A stretch of 64,000 nucleotides of DNA, taken from the NCBI GenBank assembly GCA_018821925.1, contig JAHJLF010000043.1, positions 1,599 to 65,598 on the forward strand, read 5' to 3'. This DNA comes from Candidatus Edwardsbacteria bacterium. GTDB lineage: Bacteria; Edwardsbacteria; AC1; EtOH8. The position numbers were made by a program, and so were the translations under genes. The notes under the pieces are model-generated. The model made no database searches. It was not told the DNA's origin and saw only the letters and a list, made by a program, of their open reading frames with translations. Below are positions 17,807 to 48,848 of the stretch, one piece after another; the stretch's first letter is position 1, and every line of letters begins with the position of its first letter.

Positions 17807-17825
17807 TTTGGGATAACCGATACTG

Positions 17826-19258: not shown

Positions 19259-19263
19259 GGGCC

Positions 19264-22298: not shown

Positions 22299-22474
22299 AT
22301 GGATTTCAGGGATTCTTTTACCGCAGACACCGTCGGCCAAAGCCGGCAAACATAAAAGCAAGCTATGGCGTCGGACGAGGCGCAGAGAATACTTTCGATT
22401 ATAATTTTTGTGCTTCTTTGCTTGCCGGATATTGTAAACGATTTAAACTTCTTAAACCTTTTAAACATTAAGGT

Positions 22475-23254: not shown

Positions 23255-23301
23255 AATTTATTTACTTTTTGCTTTTATAGTGATAGAATAAAAAGCAGGT
23301 T

Positions 23302-23377
23302 GCCGCTGTAGCTCAGTTGGTAGAGCGACGCTCTCGTAAAGCGTAGGTCACCGGTTCGATTCCGGTCAGCGGCTCCA
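23302..23377 (+). tRNA. tRNA-Thr (anticodon CGU)
   Basis: 76 nt cloverleaf folded by hand: acceptor GCCGCTG/CAGCGGC, D-arm GCTC-AGTTGGTA-GAGC, anticodon stem ACGCT/AGCGT with loop CTCGTAA (anticodon CGT), T-arm ACCGG-TTCGATT-CCGGT, encoded CCA. Confidence 0.85.
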
Positions 23378-23457
23378 GAGATGGGGTTAATGGGACGCAG
23401 ATTTACGCAGATTGTTTTGCTTGGTGAGCAAATGTTGTTGCTTTCGTCATCCTGAGT

Positions 23458-24435
23458 ATGACTATCTACCCAACAAGCCGAAGGATCTTTTTAACCACAA
23501 AGAACGCAGAGTCAACTAACAAAACGCAATCAATTTTTCTTAACTTTACTACAATGAAAAAAGTACTTACAAATACATTTTCCAACTATAAAAAAGACGC
23601 TTCCAACTGGATAACACTGGCTGGTGGCGAATATTACCCAGATATTTTAAAAGACGCTTGTCAGCTTTACAAACCTGTTTTAGTTTTATTCGGTCAACTT
23701 GTAAAATCTTCTGAATCATCTTCCCGACTTTTTCTTGAAATTGCCGATGTTGTCGAACCTTGGATGAGAGTTCAATTACTAAGAGTTTTCAAACGATATG
23801 TTTGCCCTGTTCTTCCTGTTGAAATGACAAAACGAAAAACAAAAGCAACAATGTTTGATAGAGAATTTAAAAGCAAATTCAGACCAATCAACGAAGTTCA
23901 AAGAGCATTTAACAGCCGACCAATTAAAGACGAAGCGCTTTGTGCCTTGCTTTGGGAATACAAGGACAGGGGTAAAAAGGGATACGATTTAACCGAAAGA
24001 TTTTTCGAATTATTCCGCAGCAATTTCAGAGGGCTTCAAATTATTGGACCCGAACGGGCAGGCAGAGATATTTTGATGAAGGAAGTTTTTGAAAGCTATC
24101 CCAACCCAACACGACCTGTTGATTTTGTAATTAAGGATAAGAATAAAATTCTTGCAATAGGTTTGGCAAGATATGATTCAGACCGGGGCGGTGCACAAGA
24201 AGACGACAGAACCGGCGGATATTCAAATTGTGCAAACGAATTTCTTGGATTCGCCAAGAAAAATAAATTAAACACCAAATTAATTTTTGTAAACGATGGG
24301 CCAGGACTTTTGCTCGGTTCAATGTGGAATGACTATTCAGCTTTAGAAAAAAGCTGGAAAGGGAAAATAATGGTGTTGACTCTGAGAATGGTGGCTGAGA
24401 GAATCACCGAAGAATGGTTAAACTCAAAATTGTAA
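23458..24435 (+). CDS. Hypothetical protein, candidate restriction endonuclease partner of the downstream DNA methyltransferase
   Basis: 325 aa ORF in a low-GC (~38%) segment directly 3' of the tRNA. 5-nt gap to the methyltransferase gene. No family recognised. Alternative start ATG 23554 (MKKVL...). Confidence 0.35.
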   Translation: MTIYPTSRRIFLTTKNAESTNKTQSIFLNFTTMKKVLTNTFSNYKKDASNWITLAGGEYYPDILKDACQLYKPVLVLFGQLVKSSESSSRLFLEIADVVEPWMRVQLLRVFKRYVCPVLPVEMTKRKTKATMFDREFKSKFRPINEVQRAFNSRPIKDEALCALLWEYKDRGKKGYDLTERFFELFRSNFRGLQIIGPERAGRDILMKEVFESYPNPTRPVDFVIKDKNKILAIGLARYDSDRGGAQEDDRTGGYSNCANEFLGFAKKNKLNTKLIFVNDGPGLLLGSMWNDYSALEKSWKGKIMVLTLRMVAERITEEWLNSKL

Positions 24436-24439
24436 CAAA

Positions 24440-25783
24440 ATGGCAACAGGCAACCCAAAAACAAAATGGAATGGAGAGTTGCACACAAGCAACTCCAACA
24501 ACGAACAGTTTTCATTTCGCCCTGTTTGGCAAAATGGAAATTCTGCAAACCGTTTGTATTTTGGCGACAATGTTTCAGTAATGAAGGATTTGGTGAAAGA
24601 CAAAACGGTGAAAGGAGAAATCCGCCTCATATACATTGACCCGCCTTACGCTACCAACAGCGTTTTTCAAACACGAAAACAAAAAGACGCTTACACCGAC
24701 CTGTTGACAGGTGAACACTATATTGAGTTTATGCGTGAACGATTGTTGCTGATGAAGGAATTATTGGCGACGGATGGTTCAATTTATGTTCATCTTGACA
24801 ACAAAATGGTTTTCCATGTAAAAGTTTTGATGGACGAAATTTTTGGTGCTGCAAATTTTCGCAGCATGATTACAAGGAAAAAGTGCAAGTCAAAGAACTT
24901 TACAAAAAATTCCTTTGGAAATATTTGTGATTACATTTTGTTTTATACAAAATCCGCTAACGCAGTTTGGCACAAGCAATTTAATGAATGGACTGACGAG
25001 AAAATTCTGATCGAGTATCCGCTCATTGAGAAAGAAACTGGCAGACGGCACAAGCGAGTACCTATTCATGCCCCCGGAACAAGAAACGGAACTACAGGAA
25101 AGATGTGGAAAGGAATGATGCCGCCTGAAGGTAAACATTGGCAATTCACACCCGACAAGTTGGACGAGTTGGACCGAAAAGGTGAACTCCACTGGAGTAA
25201 AAATGGCAACCCAAGACGCAAAATTTATTTAGACGAAAGCAACGGAATCGCTTTGCAAGATATTTGGCTTGACTACTTAGATGCAAATAATCAAAACACT
25301 CAAACCACAGGTTATCCGACAGAAAAAAATATTGAGATGTTGAAACGAATCATTCTTGCTTCTTCAAATAAAGGAGATCTGGTTATGGACTGTTTTGCGG
25401 GTTCCGGAACAACTTTGGTTGCAGCAGACGAACTTCACCGTAACTGGATTGGCGTTGACATCGGCAGCGAATCAATGAAAGTAATTTTGAATCGTTTCCA
25501 AAATGGAACTCAAACTTTAGACGACCACATCAATGACGAGAAACCAAAAACCAAATCAAAGAAGATTGATTTGTTTTCTGACCAAGAGGAAGAAGAAAAG
25601 CTACCTCAACAATCAAAAAAAGTGCAGCAACATTTAGTAAGCGACTTTTCAATTTTAGTGAACGGAAATTATTCAGGGATAGAGTTTCAAGTGCCAACGC
25701 AGTTGAACTCACATTTTGCTCTGCCCAACGCAAAGGCAAACACCGCAAAGCAAAAAAAGCCTGCACTGAGCCCAGCACCTTGA
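24440..25783 (+). CDS. Site-specific DNA methyltransferase (N6-adenine/N4-cytosine, beta-class)
   Basis: 447 aa. Motif IV 'IYIDPPYAT' precedes motif I 'DCFAGSGTT' (beta-class order). Low-GC. Confidence 0.8.
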   Translation: MATGNPKTKWNGELHTSNSNNEQFSFRPVWQNGNSANRLYFGDNVSVMKDLVKDKTVKGEIRLIYIDPPYATNSVFQTRKQKDAYTDLLTGEHYIEFMRERLLLMKELLATDGSIYVHLDNKMVFHVKVLMDEIFGAANFRSMITRKKCKSKNFTKNSFGNICDYILFYTKSANAVWHKQFNEWTDEKILIEYPLIEKETGRRHKRVPIHAPGTRNGTTGKMWKGMMPPEGKHWQFTPDKLDELDRKGELHWSKNGNPRRKIYLDESNGIALQDIWLDYLDANNQNTQTTGYPTEKNIEMLKRIILASSNKGDLVMDCFAGSGTTLVAADELHRNWIGVDIGSESMKVILNRFQNGTQTLDDHINDEKPKTKSKKIDLFSDQEEEEKLPQQSKKVQQHLVSDFSILVNGNYSGIEFQVPTQLNSHFALPNAKANTAKQKKPALSPAP

Positions 25784-25812
25784 ATGGCTGTCGGAGTGAA
25801 GCAATCCCGGTT

Positions 25813-25863
25813 GTCATTCCCGCCCCGCATCAAGTGCGGGATAAACTCCGGCGGGAATCCAGG
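25813..25863. repeat. REP/MITE-like nested hairpin repeat (same family as 13757-13966)
   Basis: GTCATTCCCGCC-[CCGCATCAAGTGCGG]-ATAAACTCC-GGCGGGAATCCAGG. Outer arms ATTCCCGCC/GGCGGGAAT enclose an inner 6-bp hairpin. Confidence 0.6.
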
Positions 25864-25963
25864 CTTAATGGGACACGGACGCCGTCGTCCAAAGCCGTCT
25901 TTTATAGTAGCAGACTATGGCGCCGGACGATTTACACGGATTATTTCAAAGCATTTATAAAAG

Positions 25964-28774
25964 ATGACCAAACAGGAAGCCAAACAACAGATACAAAAGC
26001 TGGTTGAAAAGTACCAGCGGATAGCGGAAGCGGGGAAGGTGAAAACCTACAACGAGGCCCAAACCCGCAACGAATTTATTGAACCGCTGTTTAGCTTCTT
26101 GGGCTGGGACATGCGGAACCTGTCAACCGATAATGAGGTGACCACCGAGGAAAATGTCTCCGGCGGCAGGGTTGATTTGGCTTTCCGTTTCAATAATATT
26201 CCGGTGATGTTTCTGGAAGCCAAGGCCATGAAGGTTGACCTGGACGAGTGGAAATGGGCCGAGCAGGCCATAAACTACAGTTGGAATAAAAGCGTTACTT
26301 GGGCGGTGCTGACCGATTTTGAAAGCATCAAGGTATTCAACGCCGAAATACCGCCTAAAAGCATTTCGCAAAACCTGTTCATTGAATTAAAGTGCGCTGA
26401 TTTTGTCGCCCGGTTTGACCAGTTGTGGCTGCTGTCCAAGGAAAGCTTTGAAACCAAACTGTTGGACAAGGAAGCGGTAAAGTGGGGCAAGCTTACCCAG
26501 CGCAAACAGGTGGGGGTAAAGCTTTTCGAGGACCTGATGTCCTGGCGCATCCTGCTGACCAAGGAGTTCAAAAAGCAGAACGACCTTAGTCAGGAGGAAT
26601 TGGACGAGGGCGTTCAGAGGGTGCTTGACAGGCTTATCTTCATCCGCACCGCCGAGGATCGGGAAATAGAGCAAAACGTTCTGATGGGCATTTTGCGAAG
26701 CGGGAAAGCCGGGCTTTACCGCCAGTTGGCAAAAGAGTTCCGGGATTTTGACGATGGCTTTAATTCCAAGCTGTTCGCACCGCACTACTGCGAAGAATGG
26801 AAAGCAGATGATAAGGTCATCGCCGAGGTCATAAGCGGCATCTACGAAACAAGAGACGGCTACCGATACGATTTTTCGGCCATCTCCTCCGATGTGCTGG
26901 GCGGAATTTACGAGCAGTATCTGGGTTATGTCCAGGGACGGAAAAGCGAAGAGAAGCAGAAATCCCAAAGAAAAGCCCAGGGCATATATTATACGCCGAA
27001 GTATATCGTTGATTACATTGTAAAAGAGGCGCTGGGCGAGGCGCTGAAAAACGCCAAACCCAAGGACATTTCCAAAATAAAGGTGCTGGACCCGGCCTGC
27101 GGCTCCGGCTCGTTCTTGACTGCGGCTTATGATGAGATTCTGGGGAAGGTGGCGAACCCCAATTTGTTTACCAAATTTGATATTTTGAAAGACAATATCT
27201 ACGGGGTTGACTTGGACGCCCAGGCGGTGGAGATAGCCCAACTGAATCTGTTGCTAAAGGTTTTAACCCAGAAGACCAAACTGCCATCGTTACAGCATAA
27301 TTTAAGTTCTGGCAATTCGCTGATTTCCGAAGGCGACCCAAAATACAAGCCGTTCAATTTTGAAACCGAATTCAAAGAAGTATCTGCACATGGTGGTTTT
27401 GATGTAATCATCGGTAACCCGCCATATATTAAGGAATATACAAACCGATCAGCTTTTGACGCCGTGCATGACAATCCTTATTACCAAGGTAAAATGGATA
27501 TTTGGACACTCTTTGCCTGTCGCGCTATAGATTTGCTAAAAGACGGCGGCTATTTCAGCTTCATTGCACCTAATAATTGGCTCACTAACGCCGGTGCGCG
27601 TATTTTTAGAAACAAGATTTTAACAGAAGGGCAGATTACAAAATTCATAGATTTTGGCGATTTTAAGGTTTTCAAAGATGCCGGTATACAAACGATGATT
27701 TTTGTGTTTCAGAAAGGGAAGCCAAAGAAAAGGTATCAGACATGTTATGCAAAAATTGTAGACAAAAATATTGGAGAAGGCGCAGTTAATTTATTGTTGC
27801 AGTCAAACCTTAAAGCAGGCAATAGTGGAATTACAAAATTTAACGCGACGATTAACCCAAGGCAACTTATAGATAAAAATATCGTATTTTCTAACCAGAC
27901 AAATGACGAAATATTGAATAAAATTGAAGCCAAGAAAAACTTTGAGCTTACTGAGAAAGAAGTGGCGCAGGGCATTGTTTATCCGCAAGATTTTTTAAAT
28001 AAAGCTAATCAAATCAAGTTGGGGGCTAATTTTATTGTCGGTGAAGGGATTTTTGGGTTAACAAACAAAGAAAAAGAAAATCTACATCTGACAAAAGAAG
28101 AGAAAAGTTTAATCAGACCGTATTTCACTACTGAACAGTTAGGCAGATATTATTCTAACCCCCAAAATACTCTTTGGCTTATTTATACGGATTCAAAGTT
28201 CAAAAACCCCCATGAAATGAAGCCATATCCAAACATAAAGGCTCACCTGGATAAGTTCAAAGGTGTAATTACATCAGACAACAAACCTTATGGCCTGCAC
28301 AGATCCCGAGACGAGAAATTTTTTGTGGGGGTGAAAATCATAGTGCAAAGGAAATGCACCAACAGACCAATTTTTACTTATACTGATTTTGATTGTTATG
28401 TTTCGGCCACTTTTTATGTCATAAAAACTATAAGATTAAACCAAATATATTTAACAGGCTTACTTAATTCAAGCTTGATGAAATACTGGCTTAAAAATAA
28501 AGGCAAAATGCAGGGAAGCAATTATCAAATTGATAAAGAGCCATTGTTGAATTTGCCGTTAATAAAACCCGACGAAAAGGCCCAAGAAAAAATCGCCTTA
28601 AGTGTTGATAAGATAATGAAACTGTATCAAGATTATCGTAAAACTTCGGCGAATACTGATAAATGGCATGCACTCAAAAATGATATAGAAAAACTTGATC
28701 ACGAAATTGACCATGCGGTTTATAAACTTTATGGCTTAACCGATGAAGAAATTAAAGCAATTGAAGGACAATAA
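25964..28774 (+). CDS. Type IIG restriction-modification enzyme (MmeI-like fused endonuclease-methyltransferase-TRD)
   Basis: 936 aa. N-terminal PD-(D/E)xK-like nuclease ('NEAQTRNEFIEPLF..LGWD', 'GGRVDLAF...FLEAKA'), gamma-class MTase motifs I 'LDPACGSGSFL' and IV 'IIGNPPY'. Long AT-rich C-terminal region consistent with a target-recognition domain. Confidence 0.75.
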   Translation: MTKQEAKQQIQKLVEKYQRIAEAGKVKTYNEAQTRNEFIEPLFSFLGWDMRNLSTDNEVTTEENVSGGRVDLAFRFNNIPVMFLEAKAMKVDLDEWKWAEQAINYSWNKSVTWAVLTDFESIKVFNAEIPPKSISQNLFIELKCADFVARFDQLWLLSKESFETKLLDKEAVKWGKLTQRKQVGVKLFEDLMSWRILLTKEFKKQNDLSQEELDEGVQRVLDRLIFIRTAEDREIEQNVLMGILRSGKAGLYRQLAKEFRDFDDGFNSKLFAPHYCEEWKADDKVIAEVISGIYETRDGYRYDFSAISSDVLGGIYEQYLGYVQGRKSEEKQKSQRKAQGIYYTPKYIVDYIVKEALGEALKNAKPKDISKIKVLDPACGSGSFLTAAYDEILGKVANPNLFTKFDILKDNIYGVDLDAQAVEIAQLNLLLKVLTQKTKLPSLQHNLSSGNSLISEGDPKYKPFNFETEFKEVSAHGGFDVIIGNPPYIKEYTNRSAFDAVHDNPYYQGKMDIWTLFACRAIDLLKDGGYFSFIAPNNWLTNAGARIFRNKILTEGQITKFIDFGDFKVFKDAGIQTMIFVFQKGKPKKRYQTCYAKIVDKNIGEGAVNLLLQSNLKAGNSGITKFNATINPRQLIDKNIVFSNQTNDEILNKIEAKKNFELTEKEVAQGIVYPQDFLNKANQIKLGANFIVGEGIFGLTNKEKENLHLTKEEKSLIRPYFTTEQLGRYYSNPQNTLWLIYTDSKFKNPHEMKPYPNIKAHLDKFKGVITSDNKPYGLHRSRDEKFFVGVKIIVQRKCTNRPIFTYTDFDCYVSATFYVIKTIRLNQIYLTGLLNSSLMKYWLKNKGKMQGSNYQIDKEPLLNLPLIKPDEKAQEKIALSVDKIMKLYQDYRKTSANTDKWHALKNDIEKLDHEIDHAVYKLYGLTDEEIKAIEGQ

Positions 28775-28778
28775 AACC

Positions 28779-28805
28779 AAGGTGCGGGTTATACGCACCT
28801 TTCAG
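28779..28805 (+). terminator. Weak stem-loop (possible terminator) after the type IIG gene
   Basis: AAGGTGCG-GGTTATA-CGCACCTT hairpin, but only 2-3 trailing T. Confidence 0.3.
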
Positions 28806-28873
28806 CCAAAACTAAAATATACGCAATTTGTAAATTCAATAGTTAGCCGCAACGCCACGACTAATGTGACCAT

Positions 28874-29869
28874 ATGATGACGAATGATCCAATAGGTTCT
28901 GTTGAGTATGCCAGCAGTCTTCTGAGGCCCATTCGGCTCTCTTTTGATATTCTTTTTGATGACGACACGATTCATTATTGTCTATTTGATCTTCCTATGG
29001 CTGAACAACCTTGGTATGGTTATCATCAGTCCAAGTTATACGGTTCCGGGATGCTTCCCCTTTCAGATGTCGCAGGCAAAGAGAACGCCACACCAGAGGC
29101 TGTGGCTGAGGCGCTATGCCGAGAAATCGGAATCACCAAGTCTTTCACAATTGGCAATGTTCGAAGAAACTACGTCGATCTTCACATACCAGAATTTGTT
29201 AGACGTAGTCTCATCCGTCCAAATCATCCCGTCGAATCTCCATCCGCTCAACGTGCAAGAGCGTACATCCTGTTCGCAGACCTCCGTGGATTTTCTACGT
29301 GGTCGCTTTCAGTTAATCCCGAACAGGTTACGCGGATCTTCGAGGTAATTTCTGAACGTGTCGTCCAAATGCTCATTGACTATCACTATGATTACTGGAA
29401 GTTGCTTGGCGATGGCATTATGTTGGTTTGGGAAGTAACCGATGATGAAACAACCACGGCTGATAATGCCATTGGAGCAGCTTTCGAGTTGCACAAGAAG
29501 TACTGGTACTATTGGAAAGAAGATGAGGCTCACCTGCCAGAAGGTTTCGGCATAGCAATCTGTGGTGGAGATGTCGTCAAATACGCATCAGCGACCTTTT
29601 TCGAGTCAGTAGTAATCACGGACTATCTCGGACCCGTTGTGAACCTTGCCGCGAGGCTTCAATCTATAGCGAAAGCTGGTCAAGTTCTGGTCAACAAACA
29701 AGTGAGCAAGAAATCAAGGTTTAACGGGTACTCTTTTGAAAACGTATCTGACCGTCTGAAAAATGAACTTGATAACTTAAAGGGGATTCCAGATTCGGAA
29801 CGAGTCATTTTTCAAGTTATTCATAAGTACTTTGGCCCAGATTGGCTGAACTTCTGCCATACACGATAA
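28874..29869 (+). CDS. Stand-alone class III nucleotidyl (adenylyl/guanylyl-type) cyclase-domain protein with unrecognised ~135 aa N-terminal domain
   Basis: 331 aa. C-terminal ~190 aa carry cyclase motifs: metal-binding Asp blocks 'ILFADLRGFSTWS' and 'KLLGDGIMLVWEV', 'GIAICGGDVV', and the transition-state Asn/Arg motif 'VNLAARLQ'. Confidence 0.6.
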   Translation: MMTNDPIGSVEYASSLLRPIRLSFDILFDDDTIHYCLFDLPMAEQPWYGYHQSKLYGSGMLPLSDVAGKENATPEAVAEALCREIGITKSFTIGNVRRNYVDLHIPEFVRRSLIRPNHPVESPSAQRARAYILFADLRGFSTWSLSVNPEQVTRIFEVISERVVQMLIDYHYDYWKLLGDGIMLVWEVTDDETTTADNAIGAAFELHKKYWYYWKEDEAHLPEGFGIAICGGDVVKYASATFFESVVITDYLGPVVNLAARLQSIAKAGQVLVNKQVSKKSRFNGYSFENVSDRLKNELDNLKGIPDSERVIFQVIHKYFGPDWLNFCHTR

Positions 29870-30071
29870 CGTGGCGCTGCGGCCAACACACCGCACCACG
29901 ACGCACCCCCATTTGAAATGGATTAAAGTGGACGCCCAATGGTTTTTGGTGCGGTTTGATAAGCGCAGTGTGTCGGAGCTATTTTTTGTAGCACCAAAAC
30001 CCACTGCGTGGTGTGGTGAGACGTTGGGCAAGGCTAAAATAAACCAACACTTAACAAAAGGAGTTAATAAA

Positions 30072-30725
30072 ATGAAAAAGTGCTTCTTAGCCACAATCAT
30101 TTTTCTTTTGCCTTTAGTGCTTCACGCCGATACATTATTTCTATCAAATGGGAAGTCTTACGAGGGTACGGTAACTAAATGGGATGCAGGTAAAATTAGT
30201 TTTGTTATGAAAGACGCGCCGCTATCTTCAGCCTGGGAAGTGCCATCTGAAAGGATCGATAAAATTGTTATTGATGACGGTGCCACGTATTTGCCTTTTA
30301 ATAAGTATTGGTTGAACCAAAACGACACAATTTATGCCGCCAAACTTAAAGAAGTATTATCGAGACCATCTGACAATATTACTGCGGAAGATTTAAAATT
30401 GCTCGCGTTATTGAAATGCTATCGCGGTGCGGAGGTGGTAAATATTTCTTCTGCTCAAACTACTCACCCCGCCGAAATAAAGACGATAACCTCTATTCCG
30501 TCTTCAATAAAAAAAGACAAAGCGCCTTATGTGTTTGTAAGCGCCGTTTCTTTAATCCTTGCTTATGATTTCTTTTCGGATGCGGGCGATCTTAGAGATG
30601 GAGCTAATTCTTTGCCGGATGGGGAAGATAAAGATAGATTAACCTCGGAAGCGACTGGCCATACTGTGCGTGGGGTTCTTACGCTTGCTATAGGTATCTT
30701 ATCTTTTATTGTTGCCCAACAGTAG
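30072..30725 (+). CDS. Hypothetical secreted protein with C-terminal membrane segments
   Basis: 217 aa from ATG 30072 preceded by AAGGAG. N-terminal signal peptide 'MKKCFLATIIFLLPLVLHA'. Hydrophobic C-terminus ('YVFVSAVSLILAYDFF...VLTLAIGILSFIVA'). The track ORF starts at 29871 but lacks an RBS. Confidence 0.4.
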   Translation: MKKCFLATIIFLLPLVLHADTLFLSNGKSYEGTVTKWDAGKISFVMKDAPLSSAWEVPSERIDKIVIDDGATYLPFNKYWLNQNDTIYAAKLKEVLSRPSDNITAEDLKLLALLKCYRGAEVVNISSAQTTHPAEIKTITSIPSSIKKDKAPYVFVSAVSLILAYDFFSDAGDLRDGANSLPDGEDKDRLTSEATGHTVRGVLTLAIGILSFIVAQQ

Positions 30726-30744
30726 TATAATTGCAAACGCGGCC

Positions 30745-30945
30745 CCACTAAACAAAACAAAATCATTTAACTTCAGGAAATATATCGTGTCTTCTCACGA
30801 TAAATTGATGATCAGCGTGGCCGGGATCCGGGGCGTGGTCGGAACCAGCCTGACCCCCGAGCTGGCCCTGAAATTCGCCGCGGCCTTCGGCACCTTCGTC
30901 GGAGGCGGCCCGGTGGCGCTGGCGCGCGATTCCCGCACCGCAAAC
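30745..30945 (+). repeat. Upstream copy of a ~200 bp direct repeat (glmM promoter-proximal region plus first ~50 codons)
   Basis: Near-identical to 32850-33056 from 'AAATCAT..ATCATTTAACTT' through 'GGCACCTTCGTCGG'. Similarity decays after ~30945. Confidence 0.6.
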
Positions 30946-30993
30946 CCGCCGCCCGTTAGGCGCAATTGCACCCGGACGAATGTAAATGAATAA
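30787..30993 (+). pseudogene. Truncated duplicate of the 5' end of glmM (phosphoglucosamine mutase)
   Basis: ~160 nt nearly identical to 32898-33056 (encoding 'SSHDKLMISVAGIRGVVGTSLTPELALKFAAAFGTFVG') plus ~45 nt of matching upstream sequence. Frame diverges and stops after ~67 codons. Confidence 0.5.
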
Positions 30994-32707
30994 AAATACC
31001 CTCACAAAATACCCACGCATAGTCAACCTTCTCATGGGAACAGCATTTATTTTTTTAGTGGCAACTATCGCCCATTTTCTTTTTTCACATCTTGGTTTCA
31101 ATCCCACCGACGACGGTTTCATTTTAGCGGGAAGCAGGCGAATATTAGACGGTCAAATCCCTCATCGTGACTTTATATCAATTCGTCCTGCGGGTTCCCA
31201 TTTTCTTCACATACCATTTGTTCTCTTTGGGGGCGATTATGTCTTTCTGGTCTCTCGATATTTTGTATGGATTCAATTTGCTTCTATCGCGTGGATATGG
31301 ACTGTTGTTACAGCCCGGGCCTTTAAAATTTTCTCCAATTGGGTGGAGAAGTTCGCTATTGCGCTGGTTGTGTTCTCTTTCTCGGCCCATTATTCCCCTA
31401 TCATGGCATGGCACACTATTGATGCTTTATTTCTGACTTCGGTAGGCATAATATTATGTCATAAGCAATCCTGGTTGGCGAAACTGTTTGGTTACATATT
31501 TATAGGTATGGCACCGTTGTGTAGACTGAACTTTTTACCAATGATTCCCGTGGTGATCTTGCTCTTAAACGACCGGCGACAAAAGCGTTTTTGGCTTACA
31601 GGAAGCATTCCACTGGCAGTTTACGCGGTTTATTTGGTAATCAATGGAGCGGCATCGGATGCGATTCTGCAATTAAGCGCCTATACAAATGTATTATCTG
31701 TGGGTGTAATGAGCTATGTGAAAACCTGGACTGTACCGTGGGGAATATTGACCGGCGCCTTGGCAGCAAGTATGGCATACAATGCTCTCGATTTTAAGCG
31801 CCTATCAAATACCGCCACTTGGCTAAGACTGCTTGGGCGTTTGATATTGTTTGGAATCCCTTTGGCAGCAGCTTGGTCTTTAGCCGGCGGAAGATATCTT
31901 TGGGGAGCATCTTTTGGTATTTTCGGCGCTGTTGTTGGAGCAACAATATATTTTATCGCTAAAGAGCAGAAACTATCACGGCATATAAGATGTGGATTGC
32001 TAATTATTTGCCTTGCTTGGTGCACATCCATCTCCTTAGGATATCCCACCCCTGCTTTGGCCACAGGTCCCTTGATTCTATTTCTAATAGCATGCGGGCA
32101 GTCCTCTTATCGGGTACCAAGTGGAGACAAAGTTTCCGGCAAATCTAAATGTTCGCTCATTTATCGGTTTCTTCACCCCGAAGGTTTGCGAAAGCTCGTC
32201 AATGTTCAAGTAATTTTATTAGCAATAATAAGCCTGGCGGCGTTTGGGATAGCGAGAGAAAATTATATCTACAGAGAACAGTCGGCATCCAACCTAAACC
32301 AAAATCTGGATGGCGTGCTCCCGGGAGCGAGGCTGATCAAAACGAACGGCAACACTTATAACTTTCTTATAGACTTGAAAGATGCCAAGGATATAGCGAA
32401 GAGCGAAGGGAAAAATTATTGTATCATCCCGGATGTGGCTGCTAATTGGGTAAGAAGTTCACAATGTAATCCATTATCTATTGACTGGCCACAAAGTACG
32501 GAATTGGGGAAGCAAGAATTGACAGACCGCGTCATAAGGGACATGGAAGCATATCGGGGAAGAACCATTATCATTGTACAAAAGTATGAAGCTTATTCAT
32601 TGGCTTCAGGTTTTATTCCGCTATCCGATTCATATATAGTTGTTCACTTCGTACGGTCAAATTTTAGTAAGACAGGGGAAACCAAGTTTTTTGAATTGTA
32701 TGAATAG
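30986..32707 (+). CDS. Polytopic membrane protein, GT-C-fold glycosyltransferase-like
   Basis: 573 aa, ~10 predicted TM helices. Acidic first-loop motif 'NPTDDGFILAGSRRILDGQ'. C-terminal ~190 aa soluble domain. Lower GC than flanks. Assignment by architecture only. Confidence 0.4.
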   Translation: MNKNTLTKYPRIVNLLMGTAFIFLVATIAHFLFSHLGFNPTDDGFILAGSRRILDGQIPHRDFISIRPAGSHFLHIPFVLFGGDYVFLVSRYFVWIQFASIAWIWTVVTARAFKIFSNWVEKFAIALVVFSFSAHYSPIMAWHTIDALFLTSVGIILCHKQSWLAKLFGYIFIGMAPLCRLNFLPMIPVVILLLNDRRQKRFWLTGSIPLAVYAVYLVINGAASDAILQLSAYTNVLSVGVMSYVKTWTVPWGILTGALAASMAYNALDFKRLSNTATWLRLLGRLILFGIPLAAAWSLAGGRYLWGASFGIFGAVVGATIYFIAKEQKLSRHIRCGLLIICLAWCTSISLGYPTPALATGPLILFLIACGQSSYRVPSGDKVSGKSKCSLIYRFLHPEGLRKLVNVQVILLAIISLAAFGIARENYIYREQSASNLNQNLDGVLPGARLIKTNGNTYNFLIDLKDAKDIAKSEGKNYCIIPDVAANWVRSSQCNPLSIDWPQSTELGKQELTDRVIRDMEAYRGRTIIIVQKYEAYSLASGFIPLSDSYIVVHFVRSNFSKTGETKFFELYE

Positions 32708-32897
32708 ATTCATACCTATGCTTTATTTAGAGTCTGTAACTTCATATAACGCGGACTATAAGGCTGCGCTACTTCTCGCCTTCGCCCAAATCCCTCGCTC
32801 CGTTCGGGACTACGTATGTCCGCAAACGTTAGTTGCCTTTAAAAACACAACTACACAAACAAAGAAATCATAATCATTTAACTTAAGGTAATATATT

Positions 32898-34253
32898 TTG
32901 TCTTCTCACGATAAATTGATGATCAGCGTGGCCGGGATCCGGGGGGTGGTGGGAACCAGCCTGACCCCCGAGCTGGCCCTGAAATTCGCCGCGGCCTTCG
33001 GCACCTTCGTCGGTGCCGGACCAGTGGTGCTGGGGCGCGACTCCCGCCTGTCCGGCCCGGTGATGGAAATGACGGTGGAGGCCGGTCTGCGCTCGGTGGG
33101 ATGCGAGGTCATCAAGATCGGCATCGTTCCCACCCCCACCGTCCAGCTGATGACCAGACTTTTAAAAGCCAGGGGGGGCATCGCCATCACCGCCAGCCAT
33201 AACCCCTCCCAGTGGAACGCCCTGAAATTCGTCTCCGGCCAGGGGTTGTTTTTAGATAAAGGCCAGGGCGAAAAGGTCATTGCCATTTTCCATTCCGGCA
33301 AATTTGCCTATAAAAAATATGACCGGCTGGGGGGGGGCGGAGAATATCCCAACGCCATCAGTGATCATGTGGCCAGAATACTTAAATTGTCATTTCTGGA
33401 TATTCCGGCCATCAGAAGAAAAAAGTTCAAGGTAGTAGTGGACACCTGCCACGGGGCCGGCGGGCCGATATTCAGCCGGCTGCTTAAAGAATTGGGCTGC
33501 CGGGTCATCTCCTTGCACAACGAAACAAATGGAAAGTTCTCGCGGCCCATCGAGCCGCAGGCCAAGAATCTGGGCGAACTGGAGAAGGCTGTCATCGCTC
33601 ACCGGGCCGATATCGGCTTTGCCACCGACGCCGATGTGGACCGGCTGTCCCTGGTCTCCGATAAGGGCAAAGCGATAGGCGAGGAATATTCCCTGGCCCT
33701 GGCCGCCCGGTTCATGTTCTTGCATTTTAAAACCAAGGCCGTCACCAATCTCTCCACCAGCCGGATGGTAGACGAGGTGGCCGGCCAATTTAAAACCAGC
33801 GTCATCCGCACCCCGGTGGGCGAGGCCAACGTGGTCGGCGCCATGAAAAAGCACCGGGCTCTTATCGGCGGCGAGGGCAACGGTGGGATAATCATCCCCG
33901 AACTCAACTACGCCCGGGATGCCGCTGCCGGGATAGCCTTGATATTGCAGATGTTGACCGAAGAGAATCTTCCATTATCACAGATCGCCGAGAAAATGCC
34001 CAGATATCACATGATCAAAACCACCTTGACGATAAAGGATCCCAAAAGGTTTCTGGTCAAGACGACTAAAATATTCTCCAACTGCAAAACAGATAAAAGG
34101 GACGGCCTTAAATATATCTGGCCTGATGCCTGGGTACATATCAGGGCTTCCGGCACCGAGCCGATTGTGCGGGTGATCGCCGAAGCGCGGGAAGAGAAGA
34201 AGGCCAGAAAACTGGTGAATGATGTAACCCGGTTAATTAAAATTGACACTTAG
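32898..34253 (+). CDS. glmM: Phosphoglucosamine mutase (alpha-D-phosphohexomutase family)
   Basis: 451 aa. 'VAGIRGVVG' N-terminus, phosphoserine loop 'ITASHNPSQWNALKF', metal-binding 'FATDADVDR'. Two genes upstream of glmS. The track start is TTG 32898; ATG 32919 (MISVAGIRG) is an alternative. Confidence 0.75.
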   Translation: MSSHDKLMISVAGIRGVVGTSLTPELALKFAAAFGTFVGAGPVVLGRDSRLSGPVMEMTVEAGLRSVGCEVIKIGIVPTPTVQLMTRLLKARGGIAITASHNPSQWNALKFVSGQGLFLDKGQGEKVIAIFHSGKFAYKKYDRLGGGGEYPNAISDHVARILKLSFLDIPAIRRKKFKVVVDTCHGAGGPIFSRLLKELGCRVISLHNETNGKFSRPIEPQAKNLGELEKAVIAHRADIGFATDADVDRLSLVSDKGKAIGEEYSLALAARFMFLHFKTKAVTNLSTSRMVDEVAGQFKTSVIRTPVGEANVVGAMKKHRALIGGEGNGGIIIPELNYARDAAAGIALILQMLTEENLPLSQIAEKMPRYHMIKTTLTIKDPKRFLVKTTKIFSNCKTDKRDGLKYIWPDAWVHIRASGTEPIVRVIAEAREEKKARKLVNDVTRLIKIDT

Positions 34254-34319
34254 GGTCTTTTGCTTCCCGGAAGTTATCTTTCTATATCAATCAGCAATTC
34301 TAAATAAGGGAGTACTTAA

Positions 34320-34760
34320 ATGAGGGTATTGAAGATCGCTGTATTTTTTATCGCAGCCTTTTTGATAGTTTCCTGTGGGCCCAAGAGCGAAAAGAAGCAA
34401 ACTCCGACCAAACAGCAGGTCGTTAAGGAAGCCCCGCTGCCCGATGGCTATCCAGCCGAGCTGGCTATTCCCGAAGGTTTTACCGCCAAAAATATCTCGG
34501 TGGGGAATGGGACTTCCTCAGGCGGCGGTCAGGGGGTAAGAACTTACGCCACCTATCGGATCGAAAAGTTGATGGCCGGGGAAAAAACCGCATTGGTGGA
34601 GCATTATAAAAAGATCCTGGCCGAAAACAACTGGAAGGGTGAAATGAAGACCCCGGAAGCGGGTTATGGATACGGCACTTTTGCCAAGGACAATATGGAG
34701 CTGGAACTGAAAATGAACGACGTGATGTTCGCTTTCAATCTTAAGGTATATAAAAATTAG
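34320..34760 (+). CDS. Hypothetical lipoprotein
   Basis: 146 aa. Signal peptide with lipobox 'LIVSCG'. Confidence 0.45.
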   Translation: MRVLKIAVFFIAAFLIVSCGPKSEKKQTPTKQQVVKEAPLPDGYPAELAIPEGFTAKNISVGNGTSSGGGQGVRTYATYRIEKLMAGEKTALVEHYKKILAENNWKGEMKTPEAGYGYGTFAKDNMELELKMNDVMFAFNLKVYKN

Positions 34761-36745: not shown

Positions 36746-39631
36746 ATGAACGTCAAGAAAAAAACTTACAGCCGTTATCTGGGGGAGGAGACCTCTGCCA
36801 AACTTATTGAAGGAAATCTTTCCCAAAACGATAAGGAACAGGCATTGCGCCGTCTGGCTGAGCTGACCAGGGTCTTTTCGTCCTATCTGCCGGGTGGTAT
36901 CAGGAGGCATGCTCAAAAGCTTCATTCCGGGGCCAAGGTGGAACAGGCCCTGCTGCTGGCCGATGTCACCGGCTTCACGGTGCTGTCCGAGCGGCTGTCC
37001 CGCATCGGCCGGGAGGGGGCCGAGGAGGTCACCGGCATCATCAACAGCTATTTTGCCCCGCTGATAAAGATCGTCCACAACTACGGCGGCGACGTTGTCT
37101 ACTTCGGCGGCGACGCTTTCAGCGCCGGCTTCGAGACGGTGGAGGGCGAGCCCTCGCCCAGCCATCTCCGGGCTTTGCAGGCAGCTTATGAGATGCAGGA
37201 GCTGGTCAAGAATTTTACCGAGATCAAGACCTCGGCCGGGGCCTTCCCCATCAGCCTGCATCTGGCCCTGCATCTCGGCCCCACCGAGATCTTTAGCGTA
37301 GGCCGGAAAGAGACCGACCTGGAATATTTCATGGCCGGACGGGTCACCAACTATGCCTCCCAGCTGGAGGACCTATCCTCCGGAGCAGAGCTATTGATCA
37401 GCCGGGAGCTTTATAATAAAGCCAAGGGTAAGATAACGGCAGAGCCGGCCCAGAGCGATACTTATAAGCTTGTCAAAGTGAACGAAAAGGTTGGCCATTT
37501 AGCAGAGGGCGGCCAGGAGGAGGCAGAGGATATCGAGCGGTCCATCGAACATCTGGAGGCGATCCGTCCTTATTTCTCAAGCTGGCTGTCACAAAGGATC
37601 ATGGCCGATCCCAAGTCCGGAGGCGTTGCCGGGGAGCATCGCCGGGTGACCATGCTGTTCCTGAATGTCTGGGGGATGGATTTCGACGATGATCAACATG
37701 CCGTTTCCAAGGCCCAGAATTATTTTTCGGTCCTGCAGGAGGTGGTTGAGAGATATGGCGGGATAGTAAACAAGGTGGATTTCAGCCCCCAGGGCCACAA
37801 GGTGCTGATCCTGTTCGGGGCTCATATCGCCCACGAGAATGACGAGGAGCGGGCCCTGTTGTGCGCTCTGGAGATGCTGGGCCGCGAGGAGTTCGGTTAT
37901 GGCGGGGTCAAACAGAGGTTCGGGGTCAACGGCGGTTATGTCTACGCCGGGACGGTCGGCTCGGCCCTGCGCCGCGAGTTCACCGTGATGGGCGACGAGG
38001 TCAACCTGGCGGCCCGCCTGATGTCATCGGCCGGCGAACAGGAGCTGCTGGCCACCGCCGCCATCCAGAGGAAGAACTCCGGAAAATTCGGATTCAAAAG
38101 CCTGGGCGAGAAGGAATTCAAGGGCAAGAAACACCCCATCACCATATATCAGGTGAGCAAAAAAGATGAATCCGGCGATGATGTTTTTGCCAAGTGGATG
38201 ACGGAATCCAAAGCCATGGTGGGCCGCCAGAAGGAAAAGGAATTGTTGAACAGCGCCGTGGAGAAAGGCATCTCCGGGCAGGGCCAGATAATTTCGGTGG
38301 TGGGCGAGGCCGGCATCGGAAAATCCAGGCTGTCCCGGGAGCTGATCCAGAACTGGGCCGAACGGGGATATTCCTTTTTCGTGGGCAACTGCCAGTCCTA
38401 CGGCGCGGCCATCTCCTACCTGCCCTGGGCCGATTTACTGAAGACCTATTTGGGCATCAAGGAGGCCGATTCCATGGAGGCGAAAACATCCCGGATCCAC
38501 AAAATGCTGGAGATCATCGACCCGGTCCTCAAGGATTGGTCCCCGATCATCGGCGAGGTGGTGGGAGTGTCCATGCCGGAGAGCGAGCTGACCAAGTCGC
38601 TGGACGCCAAACTCAGACAGCAGAGATTATTCGATCTGGTGCTGGACATCTTCAGTTGGGGGGCGGCCCAGGAGCCGCTGCTGCTGATCATCGAAGATCT
38701 GCACTGGGCCGACGGAGCCTCCCTGGGACTGCTGAACTACGTAGCCCGTAATATCGGCGACAAACCCATAGTGTTGTGTATGGTCTATCGGCCAATCGAG
38801 GCCAAGCACGAATTCGCCGGCAAGGAATATCACAGCCAGATGACCCTTAAAGAGCTGAGCCAGGAGGAGAGCCTGGAACTGGTGAAGACCATGCTGAACA
38901 TCGAAGGGATGCCGCCGGAGCTGGAGCAGCTGATCCTGAAGAAGTCCCAGGGCAACCCCTTTTTCGTGGAGGAAGTGGTCAAGTCGCTGATCGAGCAGAA
39001 GGTGGTCGCCGAGAAGGACGGCCAGTGGCAGGTGGTGACCACCGACATAGCCAAGATCAACATACCCGACACCGTTCAGGGGGTGATCATGAGCCGTATC
39101 GACCGCCTGCCGATCGAGACCCGGGAGGTGCTGCAGATATCCTCGGTGATCGGGCGCGAGTTCGACTATCATATTTTGCAGGCCATCTACCCAAAAAAAA
39201 TAGAGATCAATCCCCACCTCAACAGTCTGAGGGGCCTGGACCTGGTGCTTACCGAGCAGGAGGGCAATTATTACTTCAAGCACATCATGACCCAGGAGGT
39301 GGCTTACGACAGCCTGTCGTTCAGCCGCCGCCGGGAGCTGCACAACAACATCGGCGATCACCTGGAGCTCAGCAACGAGAGCAAGATAGAAGAGGTGCTG
39401 GAGCTGCTGTCGCACCATTATTTCCATGCCCAGAACTGGGAGCCGGCCTTCTTCTATTCGGTGGAGGCCGGGGACAAGGCCAAGAAGGCCTATGCCAACC
39501 AGGAGGCCCTGGCCCATTACGATCGGGCGCTGGAGGTGTTCGACAAGATGGTGGAGGCCGGGATGCTGCCCGAGCTGACCCGCCGCATCCAGGAGGAGCT
39601 GAAGCAAAAGGAAGTGGAGTCGGCCAAATAG
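36746..39631 (+). CDS. Multidomain signalling protein: tandem class III nucleotidyl cyclase domains + AAA(+)/STAND ATPase + TPR
   Basis: 961 aa. Cyclase motifs 'LLADVTGFTVLSE...GGDAFSAGF' and 'MLFLNVWGMDF...GDEVNLAARLMSSAG'. Walker A 'GEAGIGKSRL'. C-terminal TPR-like helices. Confidence 0.75.
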   Translation: MNVKKKTYSRYLGEETSAKLIEGNLSQNDKEQALRRLAELTRVFSSYLPGGIRRHAQKLHSGAKVEQALLLADVTGFTVLSERLSRIGREGAEEVTGIINSYFAPLIKIVHNYGGDVVYFGGDAFSAGFETVEGEPSPSHLRALQAAYEMQELVKNFTEIKTSAGAFPISLHLALHLGPTEIFSVGRKETDLEYFMAGRVTNYASQLEDLSSGAELLISRELYNKAKGKITAEPAQSDTYKLVKVNEKVGHLAEGGQEEAEDIERSIEHLEAIRPYFSSWLSQRIMADPKSGGVAGEHRRVTMLFLNVWGMDFDDDQHAVSKAQNYFSVLQEVVERYGGIVNKVDFSPQGHKVLILFGAHIAHENDEERALLCALEMLGREEFGYGGVKQRFGVNGGYVYAGTVGSALRREFTVMGDEVNLAARLMSSAGEQELLATAAIQRKNSGKFGFKSLGEKEFKGKKHPITIYQVSKKDESGDDVFAKWMTESKAMVGRQKEKELLNSAVEKGISGQGQIISVVGEAGIGKSRLSRELIQNWAERGYSFFVGNCQSYGAAISYLPWADLLKTYLGIKEADSMEAKTSRIHKMLEIIDPVLKDWSPIIGEVVGVSMPESELTKSLDAKLRQQRLFDLVLDIFSWGAAQEPLLLIIEDLHWADGASLGLLNYVARNIGDKPIVLCMVYRPIEAKHEFAGKEYHSQMTLKELSQEESLELVKTMLNIEGMPPELEQLILKKSQGNPFFVEEVVKSLIEQKVVAEKDGQWQVVTTDIAKINIPDTVQGVIMSRIDRLPIETREVLQISSVIGREFDYHILQAIYPKKIEINPHLNSLRGLDLVLTEQEGNYYFKHIMTQEVAYDSLSFSRRRELHNNIGDHLELSNESKIEEVLELLSHHYFHAQNWEPAFFYSVEAGDKAKKAYANQEALAHYDRALEVFDKMVEAGMLPELTRRIQEELKQKEVESAK

Positions 39632-39770: not shown

Positions 39771-40853
39771 ATGAGACAAAAAGCCATACTGGTCGGCACC
39801 ATGCTGGACCGGGGCAGTATTTTCGAGGAAGAGGAATCATTGAAGGAGCTGGCTCGTCTGGCCGATACCGCCGGGGCTACGGTGATCGACCACATAGTGC
39901 AAAGGCGGGCCCGTCCCGACGCCACCTATTTCATCGGCAAGGGCAAGGTAGAGGAGCTGGCGCTGGCCGTGGCGGACAGCCGGGCCGATCTGGTGATCTT
40001 CGACCACAGCCTGACCCCCAGCCAGGCCTCCAATATCCAGGCCCAGCTGGACTGCCGGGTGGTGGACCGGGCGGAGCTGATCATGGATATTTTTGCCAGG
40101 CATGCCAGGAGCGCCGAGTCCAAGATCCAGGTGGAGCTGGCCCAGTTGCAATATCGTTTCTCCCGTTTGGTGGGGGCCGGCCTGGAGATGACCGATCCCG
40201 GCGCCGGCATAGGGACCAGGGGGCCGGGAGAGAAACAGCTGGAGCTGGACCGGCGAAAGATCAGGCACAGGATAGCGCGGCTCAAGCAGGAGCTTAAAAA
40301 GGTTGAACAGCAGAGAAGGACCCAGCGAAAATCCCGGGCCGACATATTCAAGATATCCCTGGTGGGATACACCAATGCCGGCAAATCCACCCTGATGAAC
40401 CTGCTGTCAAAGGCCAGGGTCAAAGTGGAGGACCGGCTGTTCGCCACCCTGGATGCCACCACCCGGGCGGTAGTGCTGGCCTCGGGGGAAAAATTTCTGC
40501 TGACCGATACGGTGGGCTTCATCCGGCGGCTGCCCCATCAGCTGGTGGCCTCGTTCAAGGCCACCCTAGAGGAGGTCAACCAGGCCGACCTGGTGCTGCA
40601 GGTGGTGGATAGCCCCCATCCCCTCTATCTTAAGGAGATCGCCGCGGTGGAGGAGGTGCTGAAAGAGATAAAGGCCGACCGTCCGGAGCTGTTGGTGTTC
40701 AACAAGACGGATCTACTGGATCCGGACACCCTGGATGGCCTGCGGAGAAATTATCCCGGGGCAGCTTTCATCTCCGCCTTGACCGGGGAGGGCCGCCGGG
40801 AGCTGGAGGCCCTGATACGGCAAAGAATGGAACCTCAAAGATCTGCGGAATAA
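39771..40853 (+). CDS. hflX: GTPase HflX
   Basis: 360 aa. HflX N-terminal domain ('KAILVGTMLD...') followed by G-domain 'GYTNAGKSTLMN', 'DTVGF', 'NKTD'. Confidence 0.85.
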   Translation: MRQKAILVGTMLDRGSIFEEEESLKELARLADTAGATVIDHIVQRRARPDATYFIGKGKVEELALAVADSRADLVIFDHSLTPSQASNIQAQLDCRVVDRAELIMDIFARHARSAESKIQVELAQLQYRFSRLVGAGLEMTDPGAGIGTRGPGEKQLELDRRKIRHRIARLKQELKKVEQQRRTQRKSRADIFKISLVGYTNAGKSTLMNLLSKARVKVEDRLFATLDATTRAVVLASGEKFLLTDTVGFIRRLPHQLVASFKATLEEVNQADLVLQVVDSPHPLYLKEIAAVEEVLKEIKADRPELLVFNKTDLLDPDTLDGLRRNYPGAAFISALTGEGRRELEALIRQRMEPQRSAE

Positions 40854-40893
40854 ATTTTGCCTTGGGCGGGTATATACAGATGAAGGTCTTAAG

Positions 40894-42123
40894 ATGACGA
40901 TTGTCGGGTTCTTGGTCAATTATTTTAAACTGGCCGGACGTTTCTCCCGGAATGCCAAGCTGTATCTGCTGTCCACCTTTCTGATCTCCGTCGGTTTCTC
41001 CTTCTACGGGGTCCTGTTCAATCTCTATCTGACCGAGGGGGGGTTGCAGGAGGGGATCATCGGCAGCATTCTTTCCTTAAGCGGGCTGGCTCTGGTCATT
41101 ACCGCCCTTCCGGCCGGGATTCTTTCCGACCGGCTGGGCCGGAAAAAGGCCATGATCATCGGCACCCTGGCCGGGGCCCTGCTGTCGATCTTCAGGGCTT
41201 TGACAGTGAACGGCCCCGGCCTTCTATCCCTGAGTTTTTTGGGAGGGATCGCCTCGACGCTCTATGTTCTGTCTGCCGCGCCCTTCATGATGGAGAACAG
41301 CCGCCCGGAGGAGCGGACCCATCTCTTCTCCGCCTCATTTGCCGTGATGCTGATGGCCGGGATTGCCGGCAACCTGGCGGCCGGCGAGCTCCCCGGTTTG
41401 GTGATGAATATTTTTGGCATCAGTATTTTCACGGCCTATCGTTTCGCTCTGCTATTGGGCTCCGGCATATTTCTTACGGCCCTGTGGCCGCTCTTTAAAA
41501 TATCCGAAACCCCAAAGGTTCCGGATGAATCTAATTTGATCAGCCTTAAGCGCTTAGTGCAGGGGTTCAAGGCCGCCGCCGGATTTGTCTGGTGCAATTT
41601 ATGGATCGGGTTGGGGGCGGGGCTGGTGATACCGTTCTTCAACCTGTATTTTGCCAAAAGGTTCGGCGCTTCCAGCAGCCAGATCGGTCTTTATTTTTCG
41701 GTGTCCCAGATATTCACTTTGGCGGCGGTGCTGGTGGGCCCGGCCCTGGCCAAACGTTTCGGCAAAGTCAAAACCGTGGTAGCCATGGAACTGCTGTCGC
41801 TGCCGTTTCTGATAAGCCTGGGGGCCGAGAAGGTTCTGTACATCGCTGTGCTGTCCTTCTGGATGAGGGCCAGCCTGATGCAGATGTCCTCGCCCATCTC
41901 CTCTGCCTTTATGATGGAGGTCGTCCCGGATGGCGCCCGGGCCACGGTCAACAGCATAGCCACCATGGCCTGGACCCTGTCCTGGACATTCTCCACCGCC
42001 TTTTCGGGATGGGCCATGCAGCACTACGGTTATGCCATGCCATATTACCTGACCGCAGGATGTTATGCTGTCTCGGCGATATCATTCTACCTGCTGTACA
42101 ACAGAAAAGAGCGGAGGCGGTAG
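40894..42123 (+). CDS. MFS transporter
   Basis: 409 aa, ~12 TM helices. MFS loop motif 'GILSDRLGRKKAM'. Confidence 0.7.
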   Translation: MTIVGFLVNYFKLAGRFSRNAKLYLLSTFLISVGFSFYGVLFNLYLTEGGLQEGIIGSILSLSGLALVITALPAGILSDRLGRKKAMIIGTLAGALLSIFRALTVNGPGLLSLSFLGGIASTLYVLSAAPFMMENSRPEERTHLFSASFAVMLMAGIAGNLAAGELPGLVMNIFGISIFTAYRFALLLGSGIFLTALWPLFKISETPKVPDESNLISLKRLVQGFKAAAGFVWCNLWIGLGAGLVIPFFNLYFAKRFGASSSQIGLYFSVSQIFTLAAVLVGPALAKRFGKVKTVVAMELLSLPFLISLGAEKVLYIAVLSFWMRASLMQMSSPISSAFMMEVVPDGARATVNSIATMAWTLSWTFSTAFSGWAMQHYGYAMPYYLTAGCYAVSAISFYLLYNRKERRR

Positions 42124-42153
42124 CGCCTCAATACAATAATACGGGAAGAGATC

Positions 42154-44047: not shown

Positions 44048-44096
44048 GAGCACCAACTCAGCTACATTTATAAATATCGCGGGGAGATAGTCTGCT

Positions 44097-45599: not shown

Positions 45600-45717
45600 G
45601 GATCATAGCCCTCAATATCAGGACCCATTTATTAGAAAACAAAAAATATTAACAGGCTCCCCGGCAGATCGGGAGTCAAATAAAAAACAACATATTTACA
45701 GGAGGTAGTTTAAAGCA

Positions 45718-46539: not shown

Positions 46540-46540
46540 G

Positions 46541-47314: not shown

Positions 47315-47318
47315 TGGC

Positions 47319-48017: not shown

Positions 48018-48020
48018 AAA

Positions 48021-48830: not shown

Positions 48831-48848
48831 GCACCAGTTTACCATATT

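Follow-up and report, generated by a model that had tools for sequence, protein, structure and literature searches.

A duplicated glmM 5' end flanking a GT-C-like membrane protein gene in Candidatus Edwardsbacteria: a probable recombination scar at a variable locus

Organisation of the glmM locus

The window analysed here is a stretch of 64,000 nucleotides (nt) from a Candidatus Edwardsbacteria bacterium (assembly GCA_018821925.1, contig JAHJLF010000043.1, positions 1,599 to 65,598 of the forward strand), and all coordinates given below are positions within it. It contains the gene glmM at 32898-34253 on the plus strand, encoding a phosphoglucosamine mutase of the archaeal type (TIGR03990) of 451 amino acids. 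The gene is intact, with 494 bits against the TIGR03990 cutoff of 439, and its product is 87-90% identical to the GlmM proteins of L003 and L004, two metagenome-assembled genomes of Candidatus Edwardsbacteria relatives. The 5' end of glmM is present twice on the plus strand. The working 5' end, copy B, occupies 32872-33047; a stranded one, copy A, occupies 30761-30936 and comprises 26 nt of upstream sequence followed by codons 1-50. Between the two lies an inserted cargo segment of about 1.9 kb (30937-32871, plus strand), which contains the gene of a membrane protein of 573 amino acids (30986-32707, plus strand) with the fold of the GT-C glycosyltransferases.

The order of genes is rodA, lgt, tRNA-Thr(CGT), a low-GC block, copy A, the gene of the 573-residue protein, glmM, the gene of a small lipoprotein and glmS. 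The GC content is 43% in the insert and 42% in the island to its left, compared with 56% in glmM and 56-58% in the core flanks. An original prediction, made from the letters of the sequence, had called attention to the duplication, to the lower GC content of the enclosed gene (here 43% vs 56% for glmM) and to its position at the right-hand boundary of an island, and had attributed the arrangement to an inserted element or to a duplicative recombination. The composition and the boundary were found as described, the low-GC island extending from tRNA-Thr (23302-23377) to about 32860 with the GT-C gene at its right-hand edge, and two relatives, L003 and L012, being devoid of the island. The locus is a real and fairly ordinary recombination scar of a known kind, situated at a gene-swapping hot spot.

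The direct repeat and the stranded glmM stub

The direct-repeat search gave one repeat, 30750-30936 against 32861-33047, with a length of 187 nt, 91% identity and a spacing of 2111; no second direct repeat of 42 nt or more was present in 22400-34400. In the position-by-position comparison, clear homology covered 30761-30936 and 32872-33047 with 163 of 176 positions identical (92.6%), including 140 of the 150 positions of the coding part. Outside the repeat the identity was 57% over 21 nt to the left and 37% over 24 nt to the right. Since it falls from 93% to 37% at 30936/30937, the right edge of the repeat (30936/33047) is sharp, and beyond this point no further homology between the copies was found. 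The mismatches were clustered: the longest exact run, of 62 nt (30841-30902), had P = 0.038, and 7 of the 13 differences fell in the last 34 nt (P = 0.004, post hoc).

The duplication around the GT-C-like gene, as originally predicted, is thus confirmed by both comparisons and by three sequence records, with some corrections of detail. The predicted limits, 30745-30945 and 32850-33056, do enclose the repeat but overshoot it by about 10-15 nt at each end, and a repeat with an identity of 91-93% cannot be called almost exact. Of its predicted content, the 50 codons were found, but the upstream portion amounts to about 26-37 nt and not to about 45 nt.

The same sequence is present in the ENA record ERZ27247117 k141_115783, a MEGAHIT contig of 741 kb, and in the NCBI record JAHJSC010000006.1 of assembly GCA_018830185.1, which has a slightly different length and agrees fully with the ENA record in a comparison of 8654 nt. 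A Logan contig of run SRR10598174, produced by another assembler, is 100% equal to window 30873-32928 and spans both cargo junctions. Because three records of different provenance carry the repeat, an artefact is unlikely. A chimeric join of two co-existing strains, the objection anticipated in the original prediction, has in its favour that the source is a metagenome-assembled contig and that strain mixtures are common in such data. Nevertheless, it is extremely improbable: records from different assemblers and of different lengths agree, the junction at 30936/30937 joins non-homologous sequences, so that shared k-mers cannot have made it, and the longest exact repeat of 62 nt is far under the final k of 141. 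Two more contigs encode identical GT-C and GlmM proteins, but not an identical copy of the 217-residue protein that is encoded to the left of copy A in the window.

Each copy has the layout natural to the locus, as in the relatives: the stop codon of a cargo gene, a short spacer and the start of glmM. Copy A opens a truncated reading frame, glmM' (30787-30993, plus strand), which was found as originally predicted, with a GTG start, 68 codons and a weak match to PGM_PMM_I. The stub retains a ribosome-binding site of the AGGA type together with the GTG start, and its TAA stop (30991-30993) overlaps the ATG of the GT-C gene (30986) by 8 nt (ATGAATAA). Judged from this overlap, the glmM' leader may couple the translation of the GT-C gene to signals of the glmM type; any such effect on expression is conjectural. 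The 18 stop-free codons following the junction are expected by chance in about 40% of cases and therefore the open frame is no evidence of selection. The look-up of the pseudo-ORF protein returned one contig only and was uninformative about recurrence.

The reading of the repeat as a duplicated promoter was not supported. The upstream stretch shared by the copies measures about 26-37 nt and corresponds to the ribosome-binding region, the relatives conserve only 10-45 nt upstream of the glmM start, and no sigma-70-like promoter was found on the plus strand in 30400-33200, by a sigma-70 model that may not be that of the host. With regard to structured RNA or riboswitches in the repeat or the spacer, Rfam matched tRNA only, and the fold of 32700-32900 gave z = -0.24.

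Allelic origin of the two copies

Seven related loci were compared with the window, two of them obtained from a scan of a genome collection, one from a metagenome scan and four from protein look-ups. In this comparison, of the kind recommended in the original prediction, all seven loci have a single glmM start, and neither a second start nor the gene of the 573-residue protein was present in any of them (0/7).

The two copies of the window differ at ten coding positions. Copy B shares T117, C119, A123, A126 and C144 with the relative L014. At 117, 119 and 126 copy A agrees with the majority, and its T144 is common to L003, L011 and L004 (L012 has C). Sites 48 and 54 show the pattern opposite to that of the sites from 117 to 144. 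Positions 117, 119, 126 and 144 vary in the same way among other lineages; the copies thus stem from different strains and not from a duplication in situ, and because they carry different alleles the working 5' end of glmM can reasonably be read as a replacement. In this respect the original prediction, that the insertion had brought a replacement 5' end, was broadly right.

Copy A is unique at 123 (C123), 131 and 137; the last two changes are nonsynonymous (V44A and G46A) and lie in the conserved VLGRDSR stretch. It is about equally distant from all the relatives (87-93%), like the bulk of the glmM gene of the window. It looks like a functional allele that was recently stranded and has slightly decayed.

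One alternative is a tandem duplication of the glmM 5' region in situ, after which the copies diverged or underwent gene conversion, the GT-C gene either having entered between them or having been included from the start. Direct repeats around a segment are the generic product of a duplication, and gene conversion could account for the identical core of 62 nt. Against this, four of the coding differences, out of ten (117, 119, 126 and 144), are inherited alleles, held by copy A in common with several relatives and by copy B in common with L014, the three changes unique to copy A are too few for neutral evolution over the divergence of the lineages (about 11%), and no second copy of the GT-C gene was found. 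Such an origin is therefore highly improbable.

The resemblance to L014 extends past the repeat. The working glmM is 97.3% identical to that of L014 over nt 1-263, that is copy B and the next 113 nt, and 89.7% identical over nt 264-1270. A maximum chi-square test, restricted to this single gene and to the single pair of window and L014, counted 7 mismatches in nt 1-263 and 104 in nt 264-1270 (permutation p = 0.0035; third positions, p = 0.03). The shift in identity thus indicates a homologous recombination breakpoint near nt 263, corresponding to about 33160 in the window.

The inserted GT-C gene

The AlphaFold model of the 573-residue protein, built on an alignment of 43 sequences, had a predicted local distance difference test score (pLDDT) of 91 and a predicted template modelling score (pTM) of 0.92. 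The best Foldseek matches were all GT-C enzymes, namely ArnT (5f15), STT3/OST, AglB, PimE, EmbB and ALG9, with probabilities of 0.96-1.0 and template modelling (TM) scores of 0.43-0.46. The first transmembrane helix is followed by an NPTDDG motif, in which D42 is invariant and D43 nearly invariant. The confident model, the Foldseek matches and this D42/D43 motif together support, at the level of the fold, a predicted GT-C membrane protein with an acidic motif in its first extracytoplasmic loop, in agreement with the GT-C-like character assigned originally.

In common with the GT-C superfamily (ArnT, PglB/STT3/AglB, PimE, EmbB) the protein has a multi-helix membrane domain, an acidic motif after the first transmembrane helix and a C-terminal soluble alpha/beta domain. 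It differs in lacking sequence-level matches to Pfam, NCBIfam or the PDB, and the TM scores reach only 0.43-0.46. None of the 43 sampled family members matched Pfam. Homologues numbered 234 at E <= 0.001 among the candidates scored, and the members of the family have about 550-580 residues and carry the NPTDDG motif; on the basis of the modelled fold it appears to be an uncurated family of glycosyltransferases.

The genomic context could be read for four homologues (L005-L008). The closest, L008, is 81% identical at the DNA level, and the homology covers only about 30970-32722. Two of them, L006 and L007, are found among genes of glycan synthesis (GT4, Alg13/14-like, acyltransferase and GT2), and L005 is not. 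Alongside none of the four, whether close or distant, was there a glmM fragment. A phage origin of the GT-C gene or of an attachment site in glmM' was also considered, and was rejected since no viral contig matched, either with a relative of the GT-C protein or with the glmM 5' motif.

The interval between tRNA-Thr and glmM

The left edge of the variable region is formed by tRNA-Thr(CGT) at 23302-23377 on the plus strand, identified by ARAGORN and Rfam and preceded by rodA (21072-22298) and lgt (22475-23254). The same tRNA-Thr follows lgt in L003 and L012, and synteny with the relatives stops about 120-135 nt downstream of it. There follows in the window a low-GC (42%) block of defence genes (23378-30760, plus strand), recognised by Pfam, NCBIfam and PADLOC matches. 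Defence islands next to tRNA genes are a known kind of locus.

The content of the interval in front of glmM was readable in six of the related loci. It consists of about 310 nt of non-coding sequence with no cargo gene in L012/L013, an open reading frame (ORF) of 179 residues in L003, an unrelated one of 207 residues in L004, a restriction-modification (R-M) gene in L010 that ends 8 nt before the start of glmM, and an MNT/HepT toxin-antitoxin pair in L014. The seventh locus, L011, breaks off 722 nt upstream of glmM. At least five different contents thus occur in addition to that of the window, and the defence block of the window is absent from L003 and L012. Because its content differs between relatives, the interval from tRNA-Thr to glmM is a hot spot of gene exchange, the right edge of which, to judge from upstream conservation, abuts the putative ribosome-binding region of glmM.

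The defence block begins with a candidate type II R-M pair, made up of a candidate restriction enzyme (23458-24435) and an N6/N4 methyltransferase (24440-25783). The pair is bracketed by the direct repeat TTAATGGGACRCRG...GATTTACRCRGAT, with copies at 23387-23412 and 25865-25941, the left one contiguous and the right one split by about 50 nt; this bracketing suggests that the pair was inserted as a separate module. A type IIG R-M enzyme follows (25964-28774). The last 91 nt of its gene (28676-28766) are 92% identical to L010 927-1017, the upstream part being diverged (about 49% at the protein level), a pattern compatible with specificity domains having been shuffled from strain to strain. Three genomes with core genes only 85-90% identical (window 25841-25953; L004 297-396; L011 9-121) share, at 96% identity, a non-coding element of about 113 nt, which matched no Rfam family. 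Part of the element coincides with the right end of a hairpin, GTCATTCCCGC...GCGGGAATCCAG (about 25813-25862), and this hairpin also occurs in L003 at 9322-9350.

The right part of the block encodes a PycC-like nucleotide cyclase (28874-29869; PADLOC PycC, E = 9e-12) and then the membrane protein of 217 residues (30072-30725), which has a signal peptide and C-terminal transmembrane helices. The two genes (28874-30725) are a candidate cyclase-effector pair of the Pycsar type, although no PADLOC model matched the putative effector. Just 3' of glmS, at 36746-39631, a protein of 961 residues with adenylate/guanylate cyclase and AAA_16/TPR domains is encoded. It is kept in all the relatives, and is also PycC-like in PADLOC despite being the product of a core gene.

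The 3' end of tRNA-Thr (TCAGCGGCTCCA/C) is present in three tandem copies in L012 (1497-1619), with spacers of 35 and 52 nt, in two copies in L003 (9093-9168) and in one in the window (23366-23377), where no second copy was found within the island. These tandem ends look like attachment (att) site scars left by repeated insertion and excision mediated by an integrase.

A site-specific integration of a small integrative element at glmM would have to involve an att site that includes the replacement 5' end, its integrase having been lost or acting in trans. The layout would then be that of attL (the displaced 5' end of the host gene), cargo and attR (the new 5' end restoring the reading frame), as for dusA and prfC (PMC8409611), glmM is still intact, and the tandem tRNA-Thr ends of L012 and L003 suggest that an integrase has acted at the locus in the past. 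The 1.9-kb segment between the repeats, however, encodes the GT-C protein only. Integrase or transposase domains were absent from the 10 ORFs of 21072-34760, which include the insert and the island, and from the 20 large ORFs of 175-13694 and 43106-58533, the scan leaving out 13987-21075, 39771-43023 and 58674-63839. Moreover, none of the seven relatives has an insertion at this position of glmM, no viral contig has the glmM 5' motif or a GT-C relative, and the GT-C homologues, close and distant, are without flanking glmM fragments. An integration of this type is thus distinctly unlikely, and the element assumed in the original prediction is unsupported. The literature on glmM as an integration target yielded only an unrelated truncated glmM beside sul2.

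Origin of the arrangement

The explanation that we regard as moderately probable is that the locus is the scar of a recombinase-independent event, which merged two sets of cargo of the tRNA-Thr/glmM hot spot and in which the GT-C gene brought along a replacement start for glmM. The donor would have been another strain of this lineage, and the DNA fragment would have contained the GT-C gene followed by the 5' end of glmM. At its right end the fragment would have undergone homologous recombination within the resident glmM (crossover near nt 263), and its left end, which lay 49 nt before the GT-C start, would have been joined illegitimately to the resident glmM after codon 50. The process would be a homology-facilitated illegitimate recombination, and the same map would result from a Campbell-type single crossover of a circularised fragment. 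In either case glmM would have remained whole with an imported 5' end (copy B), and the resident 5' end (copy A) would have become a dead stub of 50 codons behind the defence block, so that a haplotype with the defence block next to glmM and one with the GT-C gene next to glmM were merged. The most economical proposal is that the GT-C gene arrived with a foreign glmM start of about 260 nt, because a single event then accounts for the duplication as well as for the L014-like tract. Since the imperfect recombination product keeps both parental gene starts, the mechanism is legible in the sequence.

The site of a Campbell crossover could not be placed inside the 62-nt core from the diagnostic sites: the coding sites fitted, the 14 nt upstream did not, and the sites were too few. 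A homologue of ComEC/Rec2 with Competence, DUF4131 and metallo-beta-lactamase domains is encoded at 8692-11025; as far as its predicted domains go, it is compatible with the uptake of DNA in this uncultured lineage.

An identical map would be produced with the roles reversed, the GT-C gene being resident and the defence block arriving with the first 50 codons of the glmM of another strain; the homologous anchor would then be on the left (lgt/tRNA-Thr) and the illegitimate join upstream of the GT-C gene. Parts of the defence block are exchanged among the relatives (28676-28766, 92% to L010; 25841-25953, 96% to L004 and L011), and the 14 nt upstream of the start of copy B are closer to the relatives than are those of copy A. 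With this order of events, however, a further recombination has to be assumed for the L014-like tract (working glmM, nt 1-263), and a fragment that arrived with about 190 nt of glmM homology at its end should have recombined through this homology and replaced the GT-C gene instead of being joined illegitimately. The reversed order is accordingly considered unlikely, though less so than any of the alternatives discussed above.

Several points weigh against the arrival of the GT-C gene as the last block, a direction of transfer that we infer from few informative sites, the ten coding differences and the one breakpoint test. The sampled genomes contained neither of the parental arrangements, with the GT-C gene directly upstream of an unduplicated glmM or the defence block directly upstream of an intact one. 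L014 shares the 5' tract but has other cargo, so that the tract and the GT-C gene may have travelled separately. In the 14 nt that precede the start codon the opposite assignment fits, copy B resembling L004 and L014 more than copy A does. Finally, ordinary double crossovers are more frequent than homology-facilitated illegitimate recombination by orders of magnitude (PMC5361080), and natural transformation is hypothetical in this uncultured lineage.

It is tempting to speculate that the glmM 5' repeat serves as a portable homology arm, a single-gene GT-C cassette looping out by RecA across the 62-nt core and re-entering related genomes at glmM, and that the 68-codon leader shares translational signals with glmM. 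This is very unlikely to be the case. If it were true, the cassette would be free of any recombinase and would use the start of an essential gene as its attachment site, and the leader would put a glycosyltransferase under the translational signals of the enzyme making its amino-sugar precursor.

Relation to known systems and significance

Scars of homology-facilitated illegitimate recombination were reportedly described in 2002 by de Vries and Wackernagel and by Prudhomme et al. The present locus resembles such scars in having one homologous anchor and one abrupt non-homologous junction, in a cargo that displaces the end of a resident gene and leaves a fragment of it, in alleles that come from different strains and in the absence of a dedicated recombinase. 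The same model has been proposed for the arrays of orphan immunity genes in the type VI secretion system clusters of Vibrio cholerae and for Rhs orphan arrays (PMC5361080). There the 3' end of a toxin gene is involved, whereas here an essential housekeeping gene is affected at its 5' end, and only one round of the process is seen.

A second likeness is to the SXT/R391 elements at prfC and to the dusA islands, in which the insert lies between direct repeats derived from the 5' part of the target gene, whose reading frame is restored with a slightly different N-terminus (PMC8409611). Those elements have a size of 20-100 kb, encode an integrase as well as a directionality factor, occupy the same site in many different genomes and were shown to bring a promoter (PMC8409611). 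In contrast, the insert described here has 1.9 kb and one gene, and neither a recombinase nor recurrence was found (0/7 relatives, 0 viral contigs).

Hot spots without mobile elements, bounded by core genes, show recombination in the flanking core genes (Oliveira, Touchon & Rocha 2017, PMC5635113). The interval studied here agrees with this description in its variable content between lgt/tRNA-Thr and glmM, in the dominance of defence genes, in the mobility genes not having been found and in the recombination signal in the flanking glmM. It differs in that turnover by double crossover normally proceeds without duplication, so that the present locus would represent a rarer and imperfect outcome.

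The locus leaves the current understanding of such regions unchanged. Its value is that of a clean and datable example of gene gain at a hot spot without mobile elements. It also draws attention to a large family of the GT-C fold without a curated profile, and it shows defence genes and a predicted surface-glycan enzyme accumulating side by side near an essential cell-wall gene, in a candidate phylum without cultured members.

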